Part shown: positions 1,010 through 11,516 of the stretch, one piece after another
How positions within the stretch are numbered: the stretch's first letter is position 1
Layout: every line of letters begins with the position of its first letter
Virus record (IMG/VR): IMGVR_UViG_2778261454_000012
Direction: 5' to 3' (one strand)
Source of the DNA: a virus
Taxonomy: Duplodnaviria; Heunggongvirae; Uroviricota; Caudoviricetes
Length of the DNA stretch: 11,516 nt
Program-made: the position numbers and the translations under genes
Notes under the pieces: model-generated
The model's input: only the letters and a program-made list of their open reading frames with translations
What the model was told of the DNA's origin: nothing
The model's database searches: none

Positions 1010-1249
1010 ATGACCCAATCCGTGTTGCTGCCACCGGGGCCTTTCACCCGGAGACAAGCGCAAGCGGTCACTACCACGTACAGCAATATCACACTCGAAG
1101 ACGACCAGGGCAGTCACTTCCGTCTGGTGGTTCGTGATACTGAAGGCCGGATGGTCTGGCGGGCATGGAACTTTGAGCCGGATGCCGGTGAAGGTCTTAA
1201 CCGCTATATCCGCACCTCAGGCATCCGTACAGACACGGCCACCCGCTGA
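1010..1249 (+). CDS. ykfF: DUF905-family small protein (YkfF-like), 79 aa
   Basis: Internal ATG at 1010 preceded by AGGAG (998-1002). Product [20 protein letters not shown]... is 79 aa; the longer track ORF 797..1249 overlaps the upstream gene and is rejected. Gene order matches CP4-6. Confidence 0.6.
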
Positions 1250-1302
1250 TCGCGAAGCATTTACCCGCATTCACCTCCCCGAACACACTTTATATCCCCA
1301 TA

Positions 1303-1328
1303 CGCCAGCCATCGCCGCTGGCGTTTTT
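1303..1328 (+). terminator. Rho-independent terminator-like hairpin
   Basis: cgccagc / gctggcg 7-bp stem, 7-nt loop, then ttttt. Confidence 0.5.
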
Positions 1329-1346
1329 ATTGACGGAGACATACCC

Positions 1347-1805
1347 ATGATAACACAGACGCAGCACGACCTCGCACCCGCTAACCAACCCGAATTTGAA
1401 CTGACCGTCACGCCGGTCCCCGATGAACAGCGTATCGATTTCTGGCCACAGTACTTTGGCGCTATCCCGCAGTGGCTACTCCTGGAGCCGCATATCTTCG
1501 CCTGGATGGACCGCTTCTGTGAGGGCTACAGCGGTGGTATCTGGTCGTTCTACACCCTCAGCAATGGCGGCGCATTTATGTCCCCCGAGCCTGACAACGA
1601 TGAGACATGGCGTCTGTTTAACTGCCTGAACGGTAACGATGCCCAAATGAGTGCAGAAGCAGCAGGTATTGCTGTCTGCCTGATTGCGTATAGCCACCAT
1701 GCCTGCCGTACAGAATGTGACGCGATGACCGCACACTATTACCGCCTGCGGGAGTATGCCATGCAACATCCAGAGGCTCACGCCATTCTGCGTATTATCG
1801 ACTGA
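1347..1805 (+). CDS. yafX: Antirestriction protein, ArdB/KlcA-like (YafX/YfjX/YeeS-type), 152 aa
   Basis: ATG at 1347 with GGAGA 7 nt upstream. Product MITQTQHDLAPANQPEFELTV...EAHAILRIID matches the conserved CP4-type antirestriction protein from memory. The track ORF 1134..1805 N-terminal extension is rejected. Confidence 0.7.
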   Translation: MITQTQHDLAPANQPEFELTVTPVPDEQRIDFWPQYFGAIPQWLLLEPHIFAWMDRFCEGYSGGIWSFYTLSNGGAFMSPEPDNDETWRLFNCLNGNDAQMSAEAAGIAVCLIAYSHHACRTECDAMTAHYYRLREYAMQHPEAHAILRIID

Positions 1806-1820
1806 CCGAAGGAGCAACAG

Positions 1821-2297
1821 ATGAAACAGCTTTCCTTTTTACCCGGCGAGATGACGCCACAGGACCGGCGTCTCATTCAGCGGGCGCTCAGGGCTCTGGA
1901 CCGCCACCTGCATGAGCCCGGCGTAGCCTTCACCTCTACCCACGCCGTACGTGAATGGCTGCGACTGCATATGGCCGCGCTTGAGCGGGAAGAGTTCCGG
2001 GTGTTGTATCTGGACAACCAGAATCAGTTGATTGCCCATGAAACGCTCTTCACCGGCACGATTAACCGCACCGAGGTGCATCCCCGGGAGGTGGTCAAAC
2101 GTGCTCTGCACTTCAACGCGGCGGCGGTGATACTCGCGCATAACCATCCTTCCGGCGAGACGACACCTAGCCAGGCCGACAAAACCCTCACGCAGCGACT
2201 GGTTCAGGTGCTTCAGCTGGTGGATATCCGTGTCCCTGACCATCTGATTGTCGGTGGCAGGCAAATCTATTCGTTCGCAGAACACGGTCTGCTTTGA
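1821..2297 (+). CDS. ykfG: RadC-like JAB-domain protein (YkfG/YfjY/YeeS family), 158 aa
   Basis: AAGGAG RBS before ATG 1821. Contains the JAMM-like motif region ...AAAVILAHNHPSGETTPSQAD... (HNHPSG is the RadC/JAB signature). Confidence 0.75.
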   Translation: MKQLSFLPGEMTPQDRRLIQRALRALDRHLHEPGVAFTSTHAVREWLRLHMAALEREEFRVLYLDNQNQLIAHETLFTGTINRTEVHPREVVKRALHFNAAAVILAHNHPSGETTPSQADKTLTQRLVQVLQLVDIRVPDHLIVGGRQIYSFAEHGLL

Positions 2298-2305
2298 GGT
2301 ATTAC

Positions 2306-2527
2306 ATGAAAATTATCAGTAAACGCAGGGCAATGACGATATACCGCCAGCATCCTGAGTCCCGAATCTTTCGCTACTGCACCGGCAAATACCAGTGGCA
2401 CGGTAGCGTCTGTCATTACACCGGCAGGGACGTTCCGGATATCGCCGGAGTCCTCGCGGTATACGCCGAACGCCGCCAGGACCGCAATGGGCCCTATACC
2501 TGCCTGATGAGCATCACCCTGAACTGA
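2306..2527 (+). CDS. ykfH: DUF987-family small protein (YkfH/YeeT/YfjZ-neighbour type), 73 aa
   Basis: Internal ATG at 2306 gives MKIISKRRAMTIYRQHPESRIFRYCTGKYQWHG..., 73 aa, with GAGG upstream. Conserved partner immediately upstream of the CbeA-type antitoxin. Confidence 0.6.
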   Translation: MKIISKRRAMTIYRQHPESRIFRYCTGKYQWHGSVCHYTGRDVPDIAGVLAVYAERRQDRNGPYTCLMSITLN

Positions 2528-2545
2528 CAATAGTGGAGAACTGTA

Positions 2546-3225
<680 letters not shown>

Positions 3226-3326: not shown

Positions 3327-3596
3327 ACGGACAAACAATCATGCAACCAGAAGTTGAAGTATTAACCGATCATAATGAGCTAATTTGTTCGAGCTTTATT
3401 GAACACATTGCCAACACATTAAATTTAGGAGTGGTGTACAACTAAACCTGCAGCCAAGGATGTATAGTGAGCGAAGCCCTATCAGGCCTTTTTGGTCAGT
3501 AGATAAGATTGATCTTCGTTGATAGAATTTACTTACACCAGCTGTTACATTAAGATAATTTTTTGGTGGGAGAATGATAAGATCTTACGTAACAAT

Positions 3597-3652
3597 TTGA
3601 TTTTAATGGTGCCGATAATAGGAGTCGAACCTACGACCTTCGCATTACGAAT
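3597..3652 (-). repeat. att-type direct repeat: partial copy of the thrW 3' part (46 nt of tRNA from the anticodon loop to CCA, plus 10 bp of flank)
   Basis: 3597-3652 matches 10063-10118 with one mismatch (3604 t vs 10070 a). Identity stops exactly at attacgaat (anticodon loop). Sequence diverges on both sides. Confidence 0.85.
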
Positions 3653-3843
3653 CTGTAGCACCAATCATAACTATCTGTTTTAGCAAGCATTAACCGCATT
3701 CACTAAGCTATAGTTGATGGCACAAACAGAAAGTTGATGCATGATGTTGTCATGTATATGTCACAAATACGGCACAACGATCTTCAAACATGTAGCCACA
3801 CATCCACAGAAGAGCACAAAGCCTTGCAATCCAGTGCAACGCT

Positions 3844-4071
3844 TTGTGTACCATAGTTTTTCCTTATCAACTACCGCAAGTATCGATCGATGGAGGCTTG
3901 GATGTTAAATTTCATGACTTTGATCACTTGGTGCATCACGAAACTATCGAAGTGCAACTCGCTCATGCCAACGGCGGATCTGTGCGTGGGATTTACAACC
4001 ATGCTCAGTATCTCGATAAGCGCAGAGAAATGATGCAGTGGTGGGCGGATTGGATTGATGAGAAGGCGTGA
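3844..4071 (+). pseudogene. C-terminal fragment of a P4-family tyrosine integrase (remnant)
   Basis: Translation ...KFHDFDHLVHHETIEVQLAHANGGSVRGIYNHAQYLDKRREMMQWWADWIDEKA carries the P4-type C-terminal signature (E-x-x-LAH...VRG-x-YN-x-x-Y...RR-x-MMQ-x-WAD). The frame is open only from 3796 (TAG at 3793-3795); track start is a TTG. The N-terminal ~300 aa are absent. Confidence 0.6.
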
Positions 4072-4165
4072 TGCTTTCCATCTTTCCATTCGGATTCCTC
4101 CTACCAGGCTTGCCGGTATGGTGATATAGTTAATGTTTTACTTTTTATAGTTTATAGATAAACAG

Positions 4166-5215
4166 ATGAAAAATAATAGCATCCAGATAGCAAGGGCGAT
4201 TGCCGCGTTACTTGTAGTGTTTCACCATTTGTTTATACCAATATTCCATAGAGATAATGCCTACACAGATTATCTGAAGCATTTTAATTTTAGCTTCATC
4301 GGTGATTATGCCGTTTATGTTTTTTTCTGTATAAGCGGTTACGTAATGATGATGTCAACGACAAAAAAGCATAAAGGATCGATATCTTTCCTGAGTGACA
4401 GAATATTAAGAATCTATCCTTCGTATATTATATGGACAGTTATCGCCATTGCTTTAGTATACATTGGCAGAGTAATTGGCTATGAAATTGTTAGATTTAA
4501 AAATATTCCTCATAATGTTGTGGATATGATTCAGGTATTGCTTTTGTTGCCTTCTATTTCTGACCACAGCAACTACGCCATGACTTTGCCAACAGCATGG
4601 TCACTTGTGTATGAAATGTATTACTACGTTGTATTTGCTCTATTACTTAAATTTATTAGTGTTCGTAATATCCCGTATGCTCTCATGGGTATATTTGCTT
4701 TATCTTCGTTTGTTATTAACTCAAACTTCCCTCAGGGTAGGTACGGTTGGGTGAATTTATGGTACATTATTGGGGACTATGCGAATATATGTTTTGCATC
4801 GGGGGCGCTGATATATAACATAACAAACAACATCAATAATCCAATAAAATACAAACACCTCCCAATTGCGATTGTATTATTATTTGCGGTATTGCTATCT
4901 TCCAATAACGGCTCACTATACCAAATAAATATAATCATGATGTCAATTACAACGTTCATTTTATTTCTTTTTAGTGACTTTGGGAGTGGTGTGCTTTCTA
5001 GATGTTTTTCATATATCGGTGATGCATCGTATAGTATATACATAACCCACATGCTATTTAATTTAGCGGCTTGGAATTCTTGGACTCAGTATAGCAGTTT
5101 GGTTGGTGCCTTTGGAATTTCTATAACATCAATAGTATTTGGGATTATAGCTTACGAATTCCTTGAAAAACCATTAACGATGGCGTCCAGAACTTTAAAG
5201 CAAAGAGTTGCTTAA
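4166..5215 (+). CDS. Acyltransferase-3 family integral membrane protein, O-antigen/LPS O-acetyltransferase-like (Oac/OafA-type)
   Basis: 349 aa, many hydrophobic segments. N-terminal IARAIAALLVVFHH and RILRIYPSYIIW motifs are typical of the AT3 family. Strongly AT-rich. Convergent with the tailspike-like gene, next to the att repeat, as in Sf6-type conversion modules. Confidence 0.7.
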   Translation: MKNNSIQIARAIAALLVVFHHLFIPIFHRDNAYTDYLKHFNFSFIGDYAVYVFFCISGYVMMMSTTKKHKGSISFLSDRILRIYPSYIIWTVIAIALVYIGRVIGYEIVRFKNIPHNVVDMIQVLLLLPSISDHSNYAMTLPTAWSLVYEMYYYVVFALLLKFISVRNIPYALMGIFALSSFVINSNFPQGRYGWVNLWYIIGDYANICFASGALIYNITNNINNPIKYKHLPIAIVLLFAVLLSSNNGSLYQINIIMMSITTFILFLFSDFGSGVLSRCFSYIGDASYSIYITHMLFNLAAWNSWTQYSSLVGAFGISITSIVFGIIAYEFLEKPLTMASRTLKQRVA

Positions 5216-5218
5216 GAT

Positions 5219-5240
5219 AAAGGGCGCAAACGCGCCCTTT
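5219..5240. terminator. Bidirectional rho-independent terminator between the convergent genes
   Basis: aaagggcgc / gcgcccttt perfect 9-bp stem with aaac loop, A-run on the left and tttattattt on the right. Confidence 0.75.
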
Positions 5241-5245
5241 ATTAT

Positions 5246-7210
5246 TTAGGGGTTTCTGACCTGCCATACTTTGTCATAGCCGTGCGTATACCCACATCGT
5301 GTAACGGTTAGGTGTACTATTGCCATTGATAGAGTAGGCGTATCAAACCGGAAGCGAATATACGTCCCTCCGTTTACTACCTGCTTTACAACGTTAATTC
5401 CTGTTAGATTTTTGTCTCCTGGATCATAATTTGTCCATATATTGCCTGCTGAGGATATATCTGATTGCGTTGTACCAGAAACAGTTGCCAGAATCCTGCC
5501 ACCGGAACCTGATGATGTAACCCCGGATTTTCCAACAGGAAAAATGATTGCTTCCACGCATAAAAAATTCCCGCCAGGCGTCTTGGTTTCCTCCCCCACT
5601 GCGGTAAGGAAAACATCAAGTGATGCACCATATGGAACGATAACCGTCCCCTTGTCTGTAGATACATTGTTAAAAACAGCATTACTGTTGTAGTTTACTG
5701 CCGAAAGAACAGCCCCAATTCTGTTATTAGATATGCTATTTGAGGATTCAGTTCCGTACCACCTTCCATTTATTTTTACGCTTTGCGCCTTGGTAGAGTT
5801 CATTTTAGATGCAGTTACCGAGCTAACAAATCTAAATGTATCCTTGATCTCAAAACCACGGCATTGATTAATGTTGCTGTCGTTGCTATTGACAAAGAAC
5901 TGTACCGCCCTATCGGTCTTTATCATCCCTGTTTGGAATACTGCCATTCCTAATACGTTTGTTGCATTGTCAGGAGTTTTAACCACGGATGTTACTGTTG
6001 AGTCTCGTGTAGTCTGAATCCAACAATCAACAGCATCAAAATATATAGCAGATCGTTCAGTTTCAGCAAATGGTGAGAAATCAAATAACGTATCACCCCT
6101 AACCCCTTCAATACCTAATCCAGTTATTTTTAAATCTCTCCCCCTGTAAAATTTGTGTGGGGTAATACACATATCTGCGGCAATATTATTTGCCGCAACG
6201 TACATCAATACCTCATCATCTGAGAATGCGGGAATTTTTGATACCCTATCATAGGTTGCTCCCCAACAAAAACCGACTCCGCATCTTAATGCCCACGCAG
6301 CTGATAGATTTATAGATGTTGCAACTAGGGTCATGCCAAAGTTGCATGAATACATGAATACTCTGTCGCTTTCAGATACGAAACATGACAATGCCAGACC
6401 AACATTGTATCTCATGAGGTTTACATTGTTTATTTTATATTGCTGCCCACCTCCGGAAGGTTGCCCTAACTCTGAGTTACCTGAAATTACTAGAGGGCAG
6501 CCAACAGTTTCCTCATCGGCATTAACAAAGCCAATGTTTTCAACCAATAATTCATGACACCATGTTGCACAGAAGAAACCGCCGTCTCCGGATGTGTATA
6601 TTACTGAGTGGAGCGGGTTTGTGCCGAAAATATTTAACGAGTACCCATCCCATCTTTTCGCAGTAATATCAATTGAGGTATCGCCAATATACATAGGGCT
6701 ATCAATAAAGATTGGCATGTATGTATTATAGGCCGCAATCAATGCTGCGCTGTCGTTTGTTACCCCAGTCAGGTCAGGCCTAGGCATATCCGTGTCGTGA
6801 TTAATATCATGAACATCAACTTTTGGCGCATCCATCCACGCGCCAAACATACGAGGTGTTACGTACCCCTTCCCTTGCAGATCTCGTTTCCAGCGTTTAC
6901 CACCCGCAGTGACAATGACCATGCCGTTATCATCTGCAGAAGTCGAATCTGTGAAATCGGCCACAAACAGACCACCACCAGTATCACCTGATACTGTCGG
7001 CTTCATGCCTGTAGTGTGGAAGTCGACGAAAATCTTTTGCTGATCTCGCTCAGGCTCAATTGTCCTTAACATTGCTATATCAGGGCATGTCCCGATGTAT
7101 TTAAGACCGTCTTCATTGCCGTCCCATAAAGGAGGTGATGCGGATGTTTTTCTTTTATCGCTACTTGTAACATCAGGAATAGCGATTACTTCTATTGTTG
7201 TTTTCTTCAA
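5246..7210 (-). CDS. Tailspike-like right-handed beta-helix protein (putative polysaccharide depolymerase/receptor-binding protein), 654 aa; start uncertain
   Basis: Long clean ORF. Around residues 115-150, GYVTPRMFGA...LTGVTNDSAALIAAYN resembles the pectate-lyase-fold entry motif (FGA...G-x-TDD-x-AA). Many Asn/Gly-rich repeats downstream. Position and orientation match a P22/Sf6 tailspike. The only start at the ORF head is TTG at 7208-7210, with no Shine-Dalgarno and a stop just upstream. Confidence 0.5.
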   Translation of the reverse strand: MKKTTIEVIAIPDVTSSDKRKTSASPPLWDGNEDGLKYIGTCPDIAMLRTIEPERDQQKIFVDFHTTGMKPTVSGDTGGGLFVADFTDSTSADDNGMVIVTAGGKRWKRDLQGKGYVTPRMFGAWMDAPKVDVHDINHDTDMPRPDLTGVTNDSAALIAAYNTYMPIFIDSPMYIGDTSIDITAKRWDGYSLNIFGTNPLHSVIYTSGDGGFFCATWCHELLVENIGFVNADEETVGCPLVISGNSELGQPSGGGQQYKINNVNLMRYNVGLALSCFVSESDRVFMYSCNFGMTLVATSINLSAAWALRCGVGFCWGATYDRVSKIPAFSDDEVLMYVAANNIAADMCITPHKFYRGRDLKITGLGIEGVRGDTLFDFSPFAETERSAIYFDAVDCWIQTTRDSTVTSVVKTPDNATNVLGMAVFQTGMIKTDRAVQFFVNSNDSNINQCRGFEIKDTFRFVSSVTASKMNSTKAQSVKINGRWYGTESSNSISNNRIGAVLSAVNYNSNAVFNNVSTDKGTVIVPYGASLDVFLTAVGEETKTPGGNFLCVEAIIFPVGKSGVTSSGSGGRILATVSGTTQSDISSAGNIWTNYDPGDKNLTGINVVKQVVNGGTYIRFRFDTPTLSMAIVHLTVTRCGYTHGYDKVWQVRNP

Positions 7211-7290
7211 TTATTTCGACTGGCTGAAAATCTGGCTTGCTCCAAAACTTTACCTTATCGAATATGCAGCATCATTGGTTAAGTAATTTC

Positions 7291-7316
7291 AGGCCGCATA
7301 GTCGGCCTTCATTTTT
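7291..7316 (+). terminator. Terminator-like hairpin (plus orientation) in the junction region
   Basis: aggccg / cggcct 6-bp stem, 6-nt loop catagt, then tcattttt. Confidence 0.4.
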
Positions 7317-7345
7317 GGCATAAACAACAGAATAAACACTGCACT

Positions 7346-7373
7346 GTGTATTCATTCCAACGAGTGAATACAC
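7346..7373. promoter_or_regulatory. Perfect 9-bp inverted repeat (gtgtattca N10 tgaatacac), candidate operator or RNA hairpin
   Basis: Read directly: 7346-7354 is the reverse complement of 7365-7373. Lies about 100 bp upstream of the ATG at 7475. Confidence 0.35.
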
Positions 7374-7474
7374 GGAGCAATGTCGCTCGTAACTAAACAG
7401 GAGCCGACTTGTTCTGATTATTGGAAATCTTCTTTGCCCTCCAGTGTGAGGTCAATTTTTTTGACGGAGGATAT

Positions 7475-8443
7475 ATGAGTGAAGTAACAGATTTAGTTGT
7501 TATTGAAAAAGCAAATGCAATGACTGTATTTCAGTCTGCCGACCAGATTGAAGAAATCCTTCAAAAGGTTGAACGTGAAGTTATGTCCTTTGTGCCTGAT
7601 ATCACAACGGCAAAGGGCAGAAAGGAGATCGCTTCTCTGGCGTATAAAGTTGCGCAGACGAAAACATATCTCGATGGCCTTGGCAAAGACCTTGTTGCTG
7701 AACTGAAGGAAATTCCAAAGCTAATTGATGCCAACCGCAAGACAGTACGCGATCGCCTTGATGAACTGAAAGCCAAGGCGCGCCAGCCTCTTACTGATTA
7801 TGAGGAAGAACAGGCGCGGATTAAAGCCGAAGAAGAAGCTAAGGCAGCAGCTGAAGCTCTCGCAAAGCAAATTGAGTCTGACCATGAAATAGCGATTTTG
7901 ATGGATCGCGAATTTGACCGCCAAAGAGAAGAGGCAAGACTCAAAGCGGAGCAGGAAAAGCGAGAGCATGAAGAACGCTTAAAAAGAGAAGCTGAAGAGA
8001 AAGCCAGAGCAGAAGCCGAAGCAAAGGCAAAAGCCGAAATTGAAGCAGCAGCAAGGCGAGAAGCAGAAGCTAAGGCAGCAGCGGAACGTGCAGAGCGTGA
8101 ACGCATTGAAGCTGAGCAACGAGCACAGCGCGAAGCAAAAGAGGCAGCAGAACGAGCTGAAAGAGAAAAGCAGGCGGCAATTGAAGCAGAACGCCGAAAA
8201 GCACAGGAGGAGGCTGAACGAATCCGGCGCGAGGCTGAAGCAAAAGAGCAAGCCAGAATAGCAGAAGAAAAAAGAATCAAGGACGAAGAAGAGCGTAGAG
8301 CAAAGGATAAAGCTCACCGGAAAGAAGTAAATAACAAAATACTTGCTGACCTTATCAAGGTTGGCGCATCAGAAGATGTTGCTAAAAATATCATAACAGC
8401 CATCGTAAAAGGCGAAGTATTCGCAACAAAAATAACCTACTAA
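7475..8443 (+). CDS. Phage early-region protein with a long ER/K-rich charged alpha-helical (coiled-coil or single-alpha-helix) segment, 322 aa
   Basis: ATG at 7475 with GGAGG (7466-7470). N-terminal domain MSEVTDLVVIEK...; central ~150 aa is almost only E/A/K/R/Q in heptad-like repeats (AEEKARAEAEAKAKAEIEAAARREAEAKAAAERAERER...); short C-terminal domain. The upstream 18 codons of track ORF 7421 begin with TTG and are rejected. Confidence 0.65.
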   Translation: MSEVTDLVVIEKANAMTVFQSADQIEEILQKVEREVMSFVPDITTAKGRKEIASLAYKVAQTKTYLDGLGKDLVAELKEIPKLIDANRKTVRDRLDELKAKARQPLTDYEEEQARIKAEEEAKAAAEALAKQIESDHEIAILMDREFDRQREEARLKAEQEKREHEERLKREAEEKARAEAEAKAKAEIEAAARREAEAKAAAERAERERIEAEQRAQREAKEAAERAEREKQAAIEAERRKAQEEAERIRREAEAKEQARIAEEKRIKDEEERRAKDKAHRKEVNNKILADLIKVGASEDVAKNIITAIVKGEVFATKITY

Positions 8444-8467
8444 TAAAACCAACATAAGGAACCACCC

Positions 8468-8599
8468 ATGATTCACGCAATCGCGGGAGGCGCTCGCATG
8501 GGTGCCTTCCAACTAAATGAATCTTTACTTGAACGAATCACCCGTAAATTACGTGACGGATGGAAAAGAGTTGAGGTCTTATTATGCGCAATGAAATAG
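8468..8599 (+). CDS. Small hypothetical early protein, 43 aa
   Basis: ATG at 8468 with AAGGA 8 nt upstream. MIHAIAGGARMGAFQLNESLLERITRKLRDGWKRVEVLLCAMK. Overlaps the next ORF. Confidence 0.35.
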   Translation: MIHAIAGGARMGAFQLNESLLERITRKLRDGWKRVEVLLCAMK

Positions 8600-8736
8600 C
8601 CATCAATCACCAGATGCTTCGTGCAGCACAGAACAAAGCAGTAATAGCCAGATTTATTGGTGATTCAAAAATGTGGATTGAAGCAAATAAAGCGATGAAA
8701 TCAGCTATCAACCTTCCGTGGTATCGCAGGAAATGA
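8584..8736 (+). CDS. Small hypothetical early protein, 50 aa
   Basis: ATG at 8584 with GAGG upstream. MRNEIAINHQMLRAAQNKAVIARFIGDSKMWIEANKAMKSAINLPWYRRK. Stop overlaps the next start (ATGA). Confidence 0.4.
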   Translation: MRNEIAINHQMLRAAQNKAVIARFIGDSKMWIEANKAMKSAINLPWYRRK

Positions 8737-8891
8737 GTTTTACAGATAACTGGTCAGACGAAGAATTCATTCGTCAGATGAAAGAATTAATCGGTAACGA
8801 AGGAGATATTCATGTCACTTGCAACCACAGTGAAGGAGAGCAAGTTACAGAGACGCATGTACACGCAGAAAGCTCTCTGGTATCGCCATAA
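8733..8891 (+). CDS. Small hypothetical early protein, 52 aa, acidic
   Basis: ATGA overlap with the preceding ORF (translational coupling). MSFTDNWSDEEFIRQMKELIGNEGDIHVTCNHSEGEQ.... Overlaps the 8812 ORF in another frame, so one of the two may be spurious. Confidence 0.3.
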   Translation: MSFTDNWSDEEFIRQMKELIGNEGDIHVTCNHSEGEQVTETHVHAESSLVSP

Positions 8892-8982
8892 TGGCGACCG
8901 CGAAGGAATGCGGGTATGCCTTAATTTGTCCCGAGTCGAAGTATTAAATCAGCGTTATTTCCTTGGGCCGTGTCCATTCTGA
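8812..8982 (+). CDS. Small hypothetical early protein, 56 aa
   Basis: ATG at 8812 with AGGAG 6 nt upstream. MSLATTVKESKLQRRMYTQKALWYRHNGDREGMRVCLNLSRVEVLNQRYFLGPCPF. Ends 8 nt before the next gene. Confidence 0.45.
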   Translation: MSLATTVKESKLQRRMYTQKALWYRHNGDREGMRVCLNLSRVEVLNQRYFLGPCPF

Positions 8983-8990
8983 GGTGAATT

Positions 8991-9698
8991 ATGGATTTGA
9001 ACAAATTCGATGAGCCATTCAGCCCTGAAGATATCGAATGGCGAATACAGCAAAGCGGTAAAACACGCGATGGCAAGGTGTGGGCTATGGTGCTGGCTTA
9101 TGTCACGAACAGGGCAATCATGAAACGCCTGGACGATGTTTGCGGCAAAGCAGGATGGCGCAATGAATACCGCGATATTCCCAACAACGGCGGCGTTGAA
9201 TGCGGCATATCAATCAGGATTGATTCCGAATGGGTAACCAAATGGGATGCTGCTGAAAACACGCAGGTAGAAGCCGTCAAAGGTGGTCGTTCCGGTGCAA
9301 TGAAGCGCGCTGCCGTTCAGTGGGGAATCGGTCGGTATCTGTATAACATTGAGGAAGGTTTCGCACAAACATCTCTCGATAAAAAGCAGGGATGGCACAG
9401 GGCAAAACTCAAGGATGGAACAGGATTTTACTGGCTCCCTCCATCGCTGCCGGGATGGGCAATCCCAGCATCAGATAACAAACCATCACCAGAAAATACC
9501 AACCAGAAATCTCCATCGGTTGACTGCGAGCAAATCCTGAAAGACTTCAGCGATTATGCGTCAACAGAAACTGACAAGAAAAAACTCATCGAGCGTTATC
9601 AGCGTGACTGGCAATTAATGGCTGGCAACGAGGAGGCGCAGGCTAAATGCGTTCAGGTAATGAACATCAGAGTTAACGAACTAAAACAGGCGGCATAA
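8991..9698 (+). CDS. Single-strand annealing protein, Rad52/Rad22 (Sak-like) family, 235 aa
   Basis: GAGGTG RBS. Contains ...GVECGISIRIDSEW...KGGRSGAMKRAAVQWGIGRYLYN..., the Rad52/22-type GIGRYLY signature. Followed directly (TAAATG) by an ssb start. Confidence 0.7.
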   Translation: MDLNKFDEPFSPEDIEWRIQQSGKTRDGKVWAMVLAYVTNRAIMKRLDDVCGKAGWRNEYRDIPNNGGVECGISIRIDSEWVTKWDAAENTQVEAVKGGRSGAMKRAAVQWGIGRYLYNIEEGFAQTSLDKKQGWHRAKLKDGTGFYWLPPSLPGWAIPASDNKPSPENTNQKSPSVDCEQILKDFSDYASTETDKKKLIERYQRDWQLMAGNEEAQAKCVQVMNIRVNELKQAA

Positions 9699-10058
9699 AT
9701 GGCAAGCAGAGGCGTAAATAAGGTGATTATCCTTGGTCGGGTAGGACAAGACCCGGAAGTTCGATACTCACCATCAGGAACAGCGTTCGCTAAGGGAGCG
9801 TTAAAGCGGGCAGGCATTAGCAACTTCCGCTTCCATGATCTGAGGCATACCTGGGCAAGCTGGCTGGTTCAGTCCGGTGTCTCTCTTCTTGCACTTAAAG
9901 AGATGGGAGGATGGGAAACTCTCGAAATGGTTCAAAGATACGCCCACCTTTCAGCCGGGCATCTCACCGAGCACGCAAGCAAAATCGATGCGATTATAAG
10001 TCGCAATGGCACAAATACGGCACAAGAGGAGAACGTGGTTTACTTAAATGCTAGGTAA
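9699..10058 (+). pseudogene. In-frame chimera: SSB N-terminus (about 29 aa) fused to C-terminal catalytic segment of a tyrosine integrase (about 90 aa)
   Basis: [29 protein letters not shown] is the canonical SSB N-terminus. From about codon 30 the product reads ...[48 protein letters not shown]..., the box II region (H-x-x-R ... Y) of phage integrases. Ends 14 bp before the thrW 3' end, convergent with it. Confidence 0.75.
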
Positions 10059-10072
10059 CTTATTGATTTAAA

Positions 10073-10148
10073 TGGTGCCGATAATAGGAGTCGAACCTAC
10101 GACCTTCGCATTACGAATGCGCTGCTCTACCAACTGAGCTATATCGGC
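10073..10148 (-). tRNA. thrW: tRNA-Thr (anticodon CGU)
   Basis: Reverse complement reads GCCGATATAGCTCAGTTGGTAGAGCAGCGCATTCGTAATGCGAAGGTCGTAGGTTCGACTCCTATTATCGGCACCA, 76 nt. It has the D-arm GCTCAGTTGGTAGAGC, anticodon loop with CGT, T-arm GGTTCGACTCC and encoded CCA. Confidence 0.95.
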
Positions 10149-10262: not shown

Positions 10263-11516
10263 TTACGCACGAATGGTGTAATCACCAATGCCGATCCACT
10301 TGTAAGTGGTCAGTGCTTCCAGCCCCATTGGGCCACGCGCGTGGAGTTTTTGTGTGCTTACCGCCACTTCCGCACCCAGACCAAACTGGCCGCCGTCGGT
10401 AAAACGCGTAGAGGCGTTAACGTAAACAGCGGACGAATCCACTTCGTTAACAAAACGCTGGGCGTTGCGCATATCGCGGGTCAGGATCGCATCGGAGTGT
10501 TGTGTGCCGTGTTCACGAATATGGGCGATGGCATCGTCAAGATCGCTGACGATTTTGACGTTCAAATCTAATGACAGAAACTCATCGTCATACTCTTCGG
10601 CTTTAACAGCAACCACCTTCGCAGGGCCTGCCTGCAACTGCGCCAGTGCAGCTGCATCTGCGTGTAATGTCACGCCGCTTTCCGCCATTTGTTTGCTTAA
10701 TGCGGGCAGGAAGCTATCGGCGATGTTTTTATTCACCAGCAACGTTTCAACCGTATTACATGTGCTCGGACGCTGAGTTTTCGCGTTGACGATCACTTTT
10801 AATGCTTCAGCGATCTCTACACTTTCATCAACGTAAATATGGCATACGCCTATACCACCTGTGATCACCGGGATTGTCGACTGTTCACGGCACAGTTTAT
10901 GCAAACCAGCGCCACCACGCGGGATCAGCATGTCGATGTATTTATCCATACGCAGCATTTCACTGACCAGCGCACGGTCAGGATTATCAATCGCCTGCAC
11001 GGCACCCGCCGGTAAGCCGCAGGATTTCAGGGCGTCCTGAATCACCGCCACCGTTGCAGCGTTAGTGCGACACGTTTCTTTGCCACCGCGCAGGATCACC
11101 GCATTACCGGTTTTCAGGCACAGCGAAGCGACATCAACCGTCACGTTCGGGCGCGCTTCATAAATCACGCCAATAACCCCCAGCGGTACGCGACGACGCT
11201 CAAGACGCAGGCCGCTGTCCAGTACGCCGCCATCGATTACCTGCCCCACCGGATCGGCGAGGTTGCACACCTGACGTACATCGTCGGCAATGCCTTTCAG
11301 CCGTGCGGGCGTCAGTGCCAGACGGTCAAGCATCGCTTCGCTAAGGCCATTGGCTCGCGCGTCAGCAACATCCTGGGCGTTAGCGTTGAGGATGATTTCG
11401 CTTTGTGCTTCCAGTTCATCGGCGATTTTTTCCAGCACGCGATTTTTTTCGCGGCTGGAGAGTTGCGCTAATTTATACGAGGCTTGCTTCGCGGCAATGC
11501 CCATTTGTTCCAGCAT
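10263..11516 (-). CDS. proA: Gamma-glutamyl phosphate reductase (proline biosynthesis), 417 aa, complete
   Basis: Translation [38 protein letters not shown]...[12 protein letters not shown] matches E. coli ProA in full. Start codon is the last three bases of the window. Confidence 0.97.

Follow-up and report, generated by a model that had tools for sequence, protein, structure and literature searches.

According to statements or citations in PMC3630932, Sf6 integrates at tRNA-argW and its oac gene maps next to int; attachment at thrW and argW, and the position of oac beside int, are confirmed in the literature (PMC8022706, PMC2629481 and PMC3630932). In this argW-integrating Lederbergvirus the order is attP, int, oac and then a tailspike gene on the opposite strand, and the Sf6 record annotates an oac promoter downstream of the int stop codon as well as 'boundary sequences'. 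IntS- and P4-type elements have int downstream of the tRNA and attP and on the same strand, as is seen at the argW homologues and at the P4 attP; in P4 itself attP is upstream of int, and in the islands int comes after the tRNA on the tRNA strand. The KplE1/CPS-53 intS locus of E. coli K-12 has what we take to be a related intS-gtr layout, and the part of it compared here is the 3' end of intS, where a match to our sequence was found. Lambdoid phage genomes are mosaics, in which non-homologous joints are followed by homologous exchange at the shared flanks.

We describe here a short remnant of intS in an 11,516-bp stretch of DNA, the window, taken from IMG/VR virus record IMGVR_UViG_2778261454_000012. 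Our overall reading, in which we have considerable confidence, is that this intS stub lies inside a degraded P22-like prophage at thrW, and that the cargo block beside it came from an argW-type phage. The window has the same order and orientation of genes as Sf6, but unlike Sf6 it keeps only 42 of 385 int codons, the argW-type attP and the 5' part of int being gone, and its acyltransferase is not the Sf6 oac, with no DNA match past the int stop codon. Read in this way, the locus illustrates clearly how P22-like phages with different tRNA target sites reassort their integration modules and cargo among one another.

Results and Discussion

The prophage remnant at thrW

The right end of the window is occupied by proA and an intact thrW (Table 1), the latter being the sole match in an Rfam scan of the whole window, and the thrW-proA synteny agrees with that of E. 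coli MB06232. The displaced 3' half of the tRNA gene, thrW', forms the core repeat of attR, and the 47-bp identical core is contained in a 67-nt direct repeat, one copy of which is at 10052-10118 and the other around thrW'; the thrW' sequence is annotated as attP in the records of P22, ES18 and HK446. A four-way alignment of both window sites with the SfX attP and the occupied thrW of MB06232 reveals a hybrid att structure, with the SfX attP arm extending rightward from 3652 and an SfX-type int 3' end extending leftward from 10072. Because both att sites are hybrids, 3653-10072 is a single integrated element, a heavily deleted 6.4-kb P22-like (lambdoid) prophage at thrW.

Table 1. Features in and around the thrW prophage remnant. 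Positions are those of the 11,516-bp window.
Feature	Position	Strand	Basis
thrW' (displaced 3' half of tRNA-Thr(CGU)), attR core repeat	3606-3652	-	47 bp identical to 10072-10118
Phage-side attP arm, SfX/HK446/mEp213 (thrW) type	3653-3808	.	Similarity to SfX and to annotated attPs
Hairpin element, 52 bp	3809-3860	+	Stem-loop 3814-3849, followed by a T-rich run
Spacer between hairpin and stub, holding the recombination joint (~3925-3943)	3861-3943	.	Sharing with relatives
intS', pseudogene: 3'-terminal 42 codons and stop of an IntS/Sf6-type (P4-family) integrase	3944-4071	+	DNA and protein similarity
Acyltransferase_3-family O-acetyltransferase (predicted), 349 aa	4166-5215	+	Pfam PF01757, E 1.1e-30; PHROG 3333, E 1.4e-50
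Tailspike without N-terminal head-binding domain	5246-7114	-	PHROG tail matches from residue ~32
Lambdoid early-left operon remnant: cIII, kil, 340-aa coiled-coil protein, Rad52/Erf-like annealase, ssb 5' end	7126-9793	+	
ssb'-int' deletion-fusion ORF, 119 aa	9699-10058	+	Pfam SSB at residues 6-32 and Phage_integrase at 30-86; NCBIfam and PHROG agree
thrW, intact tRNA-Thr(CGU)	10073-10148	-	ARAGORN; Rfam tRNA, 71.8 bits; attL side, next to proA
proA	10263-11516	-	Beyond thrW

The hybrid attL and attR carry their phage attP arms inward, as in a P22-like prophage at thrW. The P22-type virion and lysogeny gene set (head-binding domain, ejection proteins, immI, and intact int and xis) is not present, and what is left in the remnant is a tailspike without its head-binding domain, the early-left genes and an ssb'-int' fusion. 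Since xis and most of int are lost, the remnant would be unable to excise by itself.

To the left of thrW', and adjoining it, are plus-strand genes at 1134-3225 for antirestriction, RadC/JAB, YkfH-like, CbeA/YafW antitoxin and CbtA/YkfI toxin products. Their equivalents at the syntenic MB06232 locus are annotated ykfH, yafW and ykfI, and these genes are the distal end of a CP4-6-like island. Because the end of this island abuts thrW', the P22-like phage must have entered an already occupied thrW, giving a tandem array, and the region from thrW' to thrW is one twice-deleted prophage remnant stacked before the CP4-6-like island.

Identity and extent of the integrase stub

The stub lies 292 bp inward of the attR core, on the phage side. 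It corresponds to residues 343-384 of the IntS protein of E. coli mip270_04 (IEVQLAHANGGSVRGIYNHAQYLDKRREMMQWWADWIDEKA, followed by the stop codon at 4069-4071) and has the same C-terminus, …ADWIDEKA and stop. The original prediction, made from the letters alone, was of an orphan C-terminal fragment of a P4-type integrase, and database searches bear this out. Sf6 Int and 611R6 IntS, searched by tblastn against the whole window, gave one significant match, at 3913-4065 (E 8e-23, in the frame of 3796), and no second match better than E 1.4. The mip270_04 IntS matched the stub region with E 1.5e-26, and residues 366-406 of P4 Int matched 3940-4059 with 51% identity and E 1.7e-10, so that the significant P4-type similarity on which the prediction had staked itself is there. 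The stub is matched as well by the NCBIfam model NF007246 (PRK09692; model positions 355-394 of 413, E 4.7e-10), with a score well below the full-length cutoff of the model, as expected for a fragment, and by the integrase family PHROG 1 (E 3.5e-7), and at the DNA level 3944-4066 is 96.7% identical to the last 123 bp of Sf6 int. Judged from these alignments, the similarity to integrases is far above chance, and the PGAP/RefSeq call on the equivalent piece in MB06232, HS, ZF8-1 and 2017.15.02CC is 'integrase, incomplete, missing N-terminus'. Pfam scans of the 91-aa and 52-aa stub translations gave no match, Phage_integrase included; because the stub is too short for that model, the family was assigned through tblastn, NCBIfam and PHROGs.

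The predicted extent of 60-90 codons, at 3796-4071, shrinks by about half, to 42 codons and a stop, DNA homology to intS beginning at 3944. We rejected an in-frame extension of the int-derived sequence to 3796 or 3913, since the DNA homology runs only from 3944; the protein alignment reaches 3913 weakly and needs a 5-residue gap to do so. Position 3796 is the first codon past an in-frame stop, and 3796-3943, considered as integrase coding sequence, was also rejected, being non-coding attP arm and hairpin element in which the ORF is open by chance. The tblastn check suggested with the prediction recovered no more of the gene: six integrases, searched over 3500-4200 in all frames and with E up to 10, found no further integrase piece beyond 3913-4065. 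Translation of a TTG-initiated 75-aa ORF at 3844-4071 is conceivable but improbable. We also note that three PHROGs of short proteins listed as 'unknown function' (37801, 14880 and 24775) match the stub with E 1e-14 to 1e-28; they seem to have arisen from ORFs called on the 3' remnants of intS in phage genomes, and would be pseudogene debris rather than real families.

Sf6 Int, mip270_04 IntS and P4 Int are alike in architecture, each with Arm-DNA-bind_3, Phage_int_M and Phage_integrase domains, and the stub has the similarity to P4-family integrases in the C-terminal catalytic region. The Arm-DNA-bind_3 (DUF4102) and Phage_int_M domains are both absent from the window, and the tyrosine-recombinase catalytic set (two Arg, Lys, His, His/Trp and Tyr) is incomplete. 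The stub keeps the last segment only (…LAH…RGIYNH…), with motifs that we take to be the final His and the nucleophile Tyr, and the HGFRH box, which presumably holds the second catalytic Arg, is placed by the alignment at IntS 324-328, upstream of the joint and hence outside the stub. The stub derives from a P4-family integrase and is not itself a functional member of the family; it is without catalytic capacity, and it probably has no function beyond offering homology.

The sequence to the left of the stub

Inward from the attR core the window is of thrW type: 3589-3890 is 94.7% identical to SfX 2768-3068, and 3597-3890 is a thrW-type attP, 95-98% identical to the annotated attP of HK446, mEpX2, mEp213 and HK542. 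A 20-nt direct repeat (ATGTCACAAATACGGCACAA), at 3758-3777 and 10006-10025 and 95% identical between the two, flanks the att core on both sides, and a copy is also found in SfX and in MB06232; these repeats may be arm-type sites at which the thrW-type integrase binds.

The attP arm is followed by the hairpin element, the stem-loop of which has an RNA fold of -19.1 kcal/mol and a z of -4.75, with none of 200 shuffles as stable; a simple terminator scan did not call it. Phages 611R6, Gally and E212 have the same element ~20 bp past the stop codon of intS, and it is also found ~160 bp beyond the core in the thrW-type attP arms of SfX and HK446. It is a probable int terminator, and may be either a shared terminator of this kind or a sib-like element. 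The segment bearing it, 3809-3924, is located past the intS stop codon in other phages, and the match to the post-int segment of E212 reaches window position 3924. The spacer that separates hairpin and stub is common to HS, MB06232, ZF8-1 and 2017.15.02CC and has no DNA homology to intS. Because the E212-type match stops at 3924 and the intS homology starts at 3944 (codon 343), we place the joint in the short interval between them (Table 1).

The cargo block and its source phage

Directly 3' of the stub sits an AT-rich acyltransferase gene (about 35% GC), the product of which is predicted from its family membership to acetylate O-antigen. The gene was found in one of 5426 complete E. coli genomes, that of mip270_04, at 100% identity, and the phage records hold no relative of it above 35% identity. 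The tailspike gene beyond it is truncated: it can be aligned with the gene for the 742-aa mip270_04 tailspike as far as 7114 (L012 position 10043), 360 bp short of the start of the latter. A deletion joins the tailspike to the early-left operon at about 7115-7126; judged against complete P22-like prophages, it probably removed tens of kb. The tailspike ORF as such spans 5246-7210, with an apparent TTG start at 7210 within unrelated sequence.

Over 3944-7114 the window is 99.75% identical to mip270_04 (NZ_CM132654.1), differing at 8 of 3171 bp in an ungapped alignment. The order in mip270_04 is yfdC, tRNA-Arg (argW), intS (385 aa), acyltransferase, opposite-strand tailspike, and the genes for Arc and the ejection proteins, and the locus is an argW-integrated P22-like prophage. 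It is the intact version of the locus described here, which it matches from codon 343 of intS, across the acyltransferase and into the greater part of the tailspike gene; unlike the window, it has a full-length IntS that adjoins tRNA-Arg in the canonical P4-type orientation, and neither the head-binding domain of the tailspike nor the ejection genes have been lost from it. The order int 3' end, acyltransferase and convergent tailspike is the same in the window, Sf6 and mip270_04, and the coordinates and strands of the three genes in the window (Table 1) are those of an Sf6-type int-cargo-tailspike module.

Because mip270_04 holds the same block behind a full-length intS, the stub, acyltransferase and tailspike must have arrived as one block from an IntS-type phage. 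On sequence grounds, the donor would be an argW-type phage essentially identical to the mip270_04 prophage, which is its closest sequenced relative. The original prediction had proposed that an intact version might be found next to an oac-like gene elsewhere, and that the element from which the fragment came was possibly the vehicle of the AT-rich acyltransferase. Both proposals hold: mip270_04 has a full-length intS at argW and, behind it, first the identical acyltransferase gene and then the tailspike gene, and the AT-rich acyltransferase and the tailspike specificity region came together from an argW-integrating, IntS-encoding P22-like phage.

intS stubs in other phages

Stubs of this kind are not confined to the window. 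A search of phage genomes with the last 400 bp of Sf6 int, which also finds intact intS genes, revealed intS stubs of ~77 bp in 434, Gally, ev099, mEp332, JEP4 and the Salmonella phages Si3, SI8, SF6 and SF10, and of ~54 bp in Stx phages 1717 and 2851, Sf101, mEp234 and E212. The 123-bp class of stub, and the joint of a thrW arm to intS', were in no record of the phage collection and are found in E. coli chromosomes only. In the cases inspected, attP is on one side of the stub and the cargo region on the other, and the phages have unrelated integrases, Gally and 434 encoding a lambda-type Int and Sf101 and E212 a different Arm-DNA-bind_3 type; in Stx phage 1717 it lies ~330 bp inside the prophage end, beside effector cargo. 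The cargo near the stubs varies and includes acyltransferases, T3SS effectors and hypothetical genes, or the tailspike follows directly. A full-text literature search for integrase remnants near attP in P22-like phages found no description of such stubs. Short integrase stubs, which are sometimes annotated as small hypothetical ORFs, can thus help to establish the origin of a moron.

This recurrence invites the proposal that the stub is kept as functional DNA or RNA, whether as a promoter, an operator, a transcript-stability element, a retroregulator like sib/tI or a handle for cassette exchange, a proposal that we consider improbable. It draws on the finding that the intS 3' end is 89-100% identical beside attP in many lambdoid phages, always at the cargo boundary, but such identity equally fits recent descent from, or recombination with, an intact intS, and the differences are all synonymous. 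A conserved hairpin adjoins the stub in several phages, and in 434 the stub follows an annotated terminator; the order of hairpin and stub in the window is, however, reversed relative to that in Gally, 611R6 and E212. Moreover, the stubs are cut at different points (about 123, 77 and 54 bp), which is what random joints would give, and a promoter scan called no plus-strand promoter-like site in or after the stub that could serve the acyltransferase, while the annotated oac promoter of Sf6 lies past the int stop codon.

Orientation of the stub and origin of the joint

The fragment reads away from the partial tRNA, as predicted: it is on the strand opposite to thrW' (Table 1), the 5' end of an int gene is not found beside the tRNA 3' end on the same strand, and the stub has to thrW' neither the relation of int to attP seen in P4 nor that of int to tRNA seen in the islands. 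The original prediction took this orientation to be an anomaly of a P4-type insertion, an interpretation that we do not share. The stub faces away from thrW' because it was never related to thrW, and its own argW/attP lay upstream of the 5' part that was lost and replaced. We propose that in an IntS-type P22-like phage, with the order tRNA-argW/attP, int, O-antigen-modifying cargo and opposite-strand tailspike, the 5' 90% of intS and its attP would have been replaced by a thrW-type (SfX/P22-like) attP-int module, the integrase of the incoming module lying at the other prophage end and converging on thrW. The nearness of the stub to thrW' is a by-product of module replacement and not of integration geometry.

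The stub is indeed a relic of a different integration system, and to that extent the prediction of a different integrative element stands; the part of it that invoked a separate or older island beside the att repeat does not, both att sites being hybrids. That the fragment could be the last piece of an older P4-type island once at thrW, independent of the P22-like prophage, is an explanation to which we give very little weight. P4-type integrases do occupy thrW in relatives, and in HS and ZF8-1 a full-length Arm-DNA-bind_3 integrase, 50-52% identical to the fragment, is found just outside thrW', in the canonical layout and on the tRNA strand. The fragment in the window, however, lies inward of the attR core with the phage attP arm between the two, it is contiguous with 3 kb of P22-like phage DNA matching mip270_04 almost throughout (99.75% identity), its strand is opposite to that of a thrW P4-type insertion, and its DNA identity to Sf6 int is 96.7%, against about 50% (protein) to the thrW island integrases. 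The further idea that aberrant integration or excision duplicated part of the thrW-type integrase gene belonging to this prophage, and that the fragment is such a copy or a diverged form of it, can be set aside in spite of the second integrase C-terminal piece at the other end of the element (9794-10058), as the two pieces are unrelated beyond the tyrosine-recombinase superfamily (Sf6 Int against 9885-9995, E 1.4), the MB06232 thrW-phage Int has no match better than E 0.9 in 3500-4200, and the resident integrase type is without Arm-DNA-bind_3.

Replacement of the argW-type integration module by one of thrW type is ordinary lambdoid phage mosaicism, and the stub calls for no new mechanism or kind of element. 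As at other lambdoid mosaic joints, the novel joint falls inside a gene made dispensable by the incoming module, and a short remnant of that gene is left.

Proposed cargo exchange at the stub

At least 80% of 3796-4071 is carried by 63 genomes. In HS, ZF8-1, 2017.15.02CC and MB06232 the thrW' core, the SfX-type attP arm, the hairpin, the joint at 3944 with the same left flank and the 123-bp stub are as in the window, but different cargo starts near the int stop codon, consisting of nothing, two hypothetical genes or a 302-aa acyltransferase, and each has another tailspike. Three of these four prophages seem to have lost far less than the 6.4-kb remnant described here.

The mismatches between the window and mip270_04 are unevenly distributed. 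Five of the 8 are in the stub, at 3948, 3960, 3963, 3987 and 4020 (binomial P 6e-7), all of them synonymous and at third positions, whereas 4021-5866 is free of them. The stubs of HS, ZF8-1 and 2017.15.02CC likewise have 3948C, 3960C and 3963T, alleles that are absent from all three intact intS genes in the comparison. The sites do not form a single clean switch: 4020 goes with the thrW class, and 3990 and 3993 go with mip270_04. In MB06232 the joint is the same but 3948, 3960 and 3963 are intS-like, so that the history of the locus involves more than one event.

These observations are consistent with a two-step history. The joint of the thrW arm to intS' would have formed once, by illegitimate recombination, and would be older and common to the other thrW prophages; the present cargo would have been imported later by homologous recombination, with the left crossover inside the stub. 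The evidence for a crossover in the stub consists of the three diagnostic sites and the clustering statistic, and, given that the site pattern is not perfectly clean, we favor this sequence of events only moderately. Because the cargo differs at the same joint and the mismatches cluster in the first 77 bp, the data suggest that cargo was swapped by recombination anchored in the homology of the stub. We looked for the HS cargo behind an intact intS elsewhere and found nothing informative, and the anchor model therefore applies to this window.

A broader and decidedly more tentative suggestion, one that we would put forward as a possibility that is on balance doubtful, is that the intS 3' end is a shared handle at the attP/cargo boundary of lambdoid phages, through which cargo has repeatedly been swapped with IntS-type phages. 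It would cover phages with thrW/SfX-type, lambda-type, Sf101-type and Stx-phage-type integrases, and the swapped cargo would be surface-modifying, tailspike and effector genes. If correct, it would explain why the stubs are so close to live intS (89-100% identical) and differ from it by synonymous changes only.

The right part of the remnant

Annotated prophage regions of 135 E. coli genomes share 97-98% identity with the early-left operon remnant, and Pfam Rad52_Rad22 and PHROG 1097 match within it. At its distal end, ~32 codons of SSB are in frame with the last ~88 codons of the resident SfX/P22-type integrase, and the fusion ORF abuts thrW; intact as it looks, this ssb'-int' ORF is a deletion scar. 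The ORF for the 340-aa protein (7421-8443, +) has a very strong skew of A over T, with an AT skew of up to 0.58, and contains degenerate GAAGCAGAAGC-type repeats at 7829-8273 that encode an E/A/K-rich coiled coil. This protein is matched by PHROGs 1376 and 21365, for which the listed function is unknown, and its relatives are annotated 'TolA' or 'coiled-coil domain-containing'.
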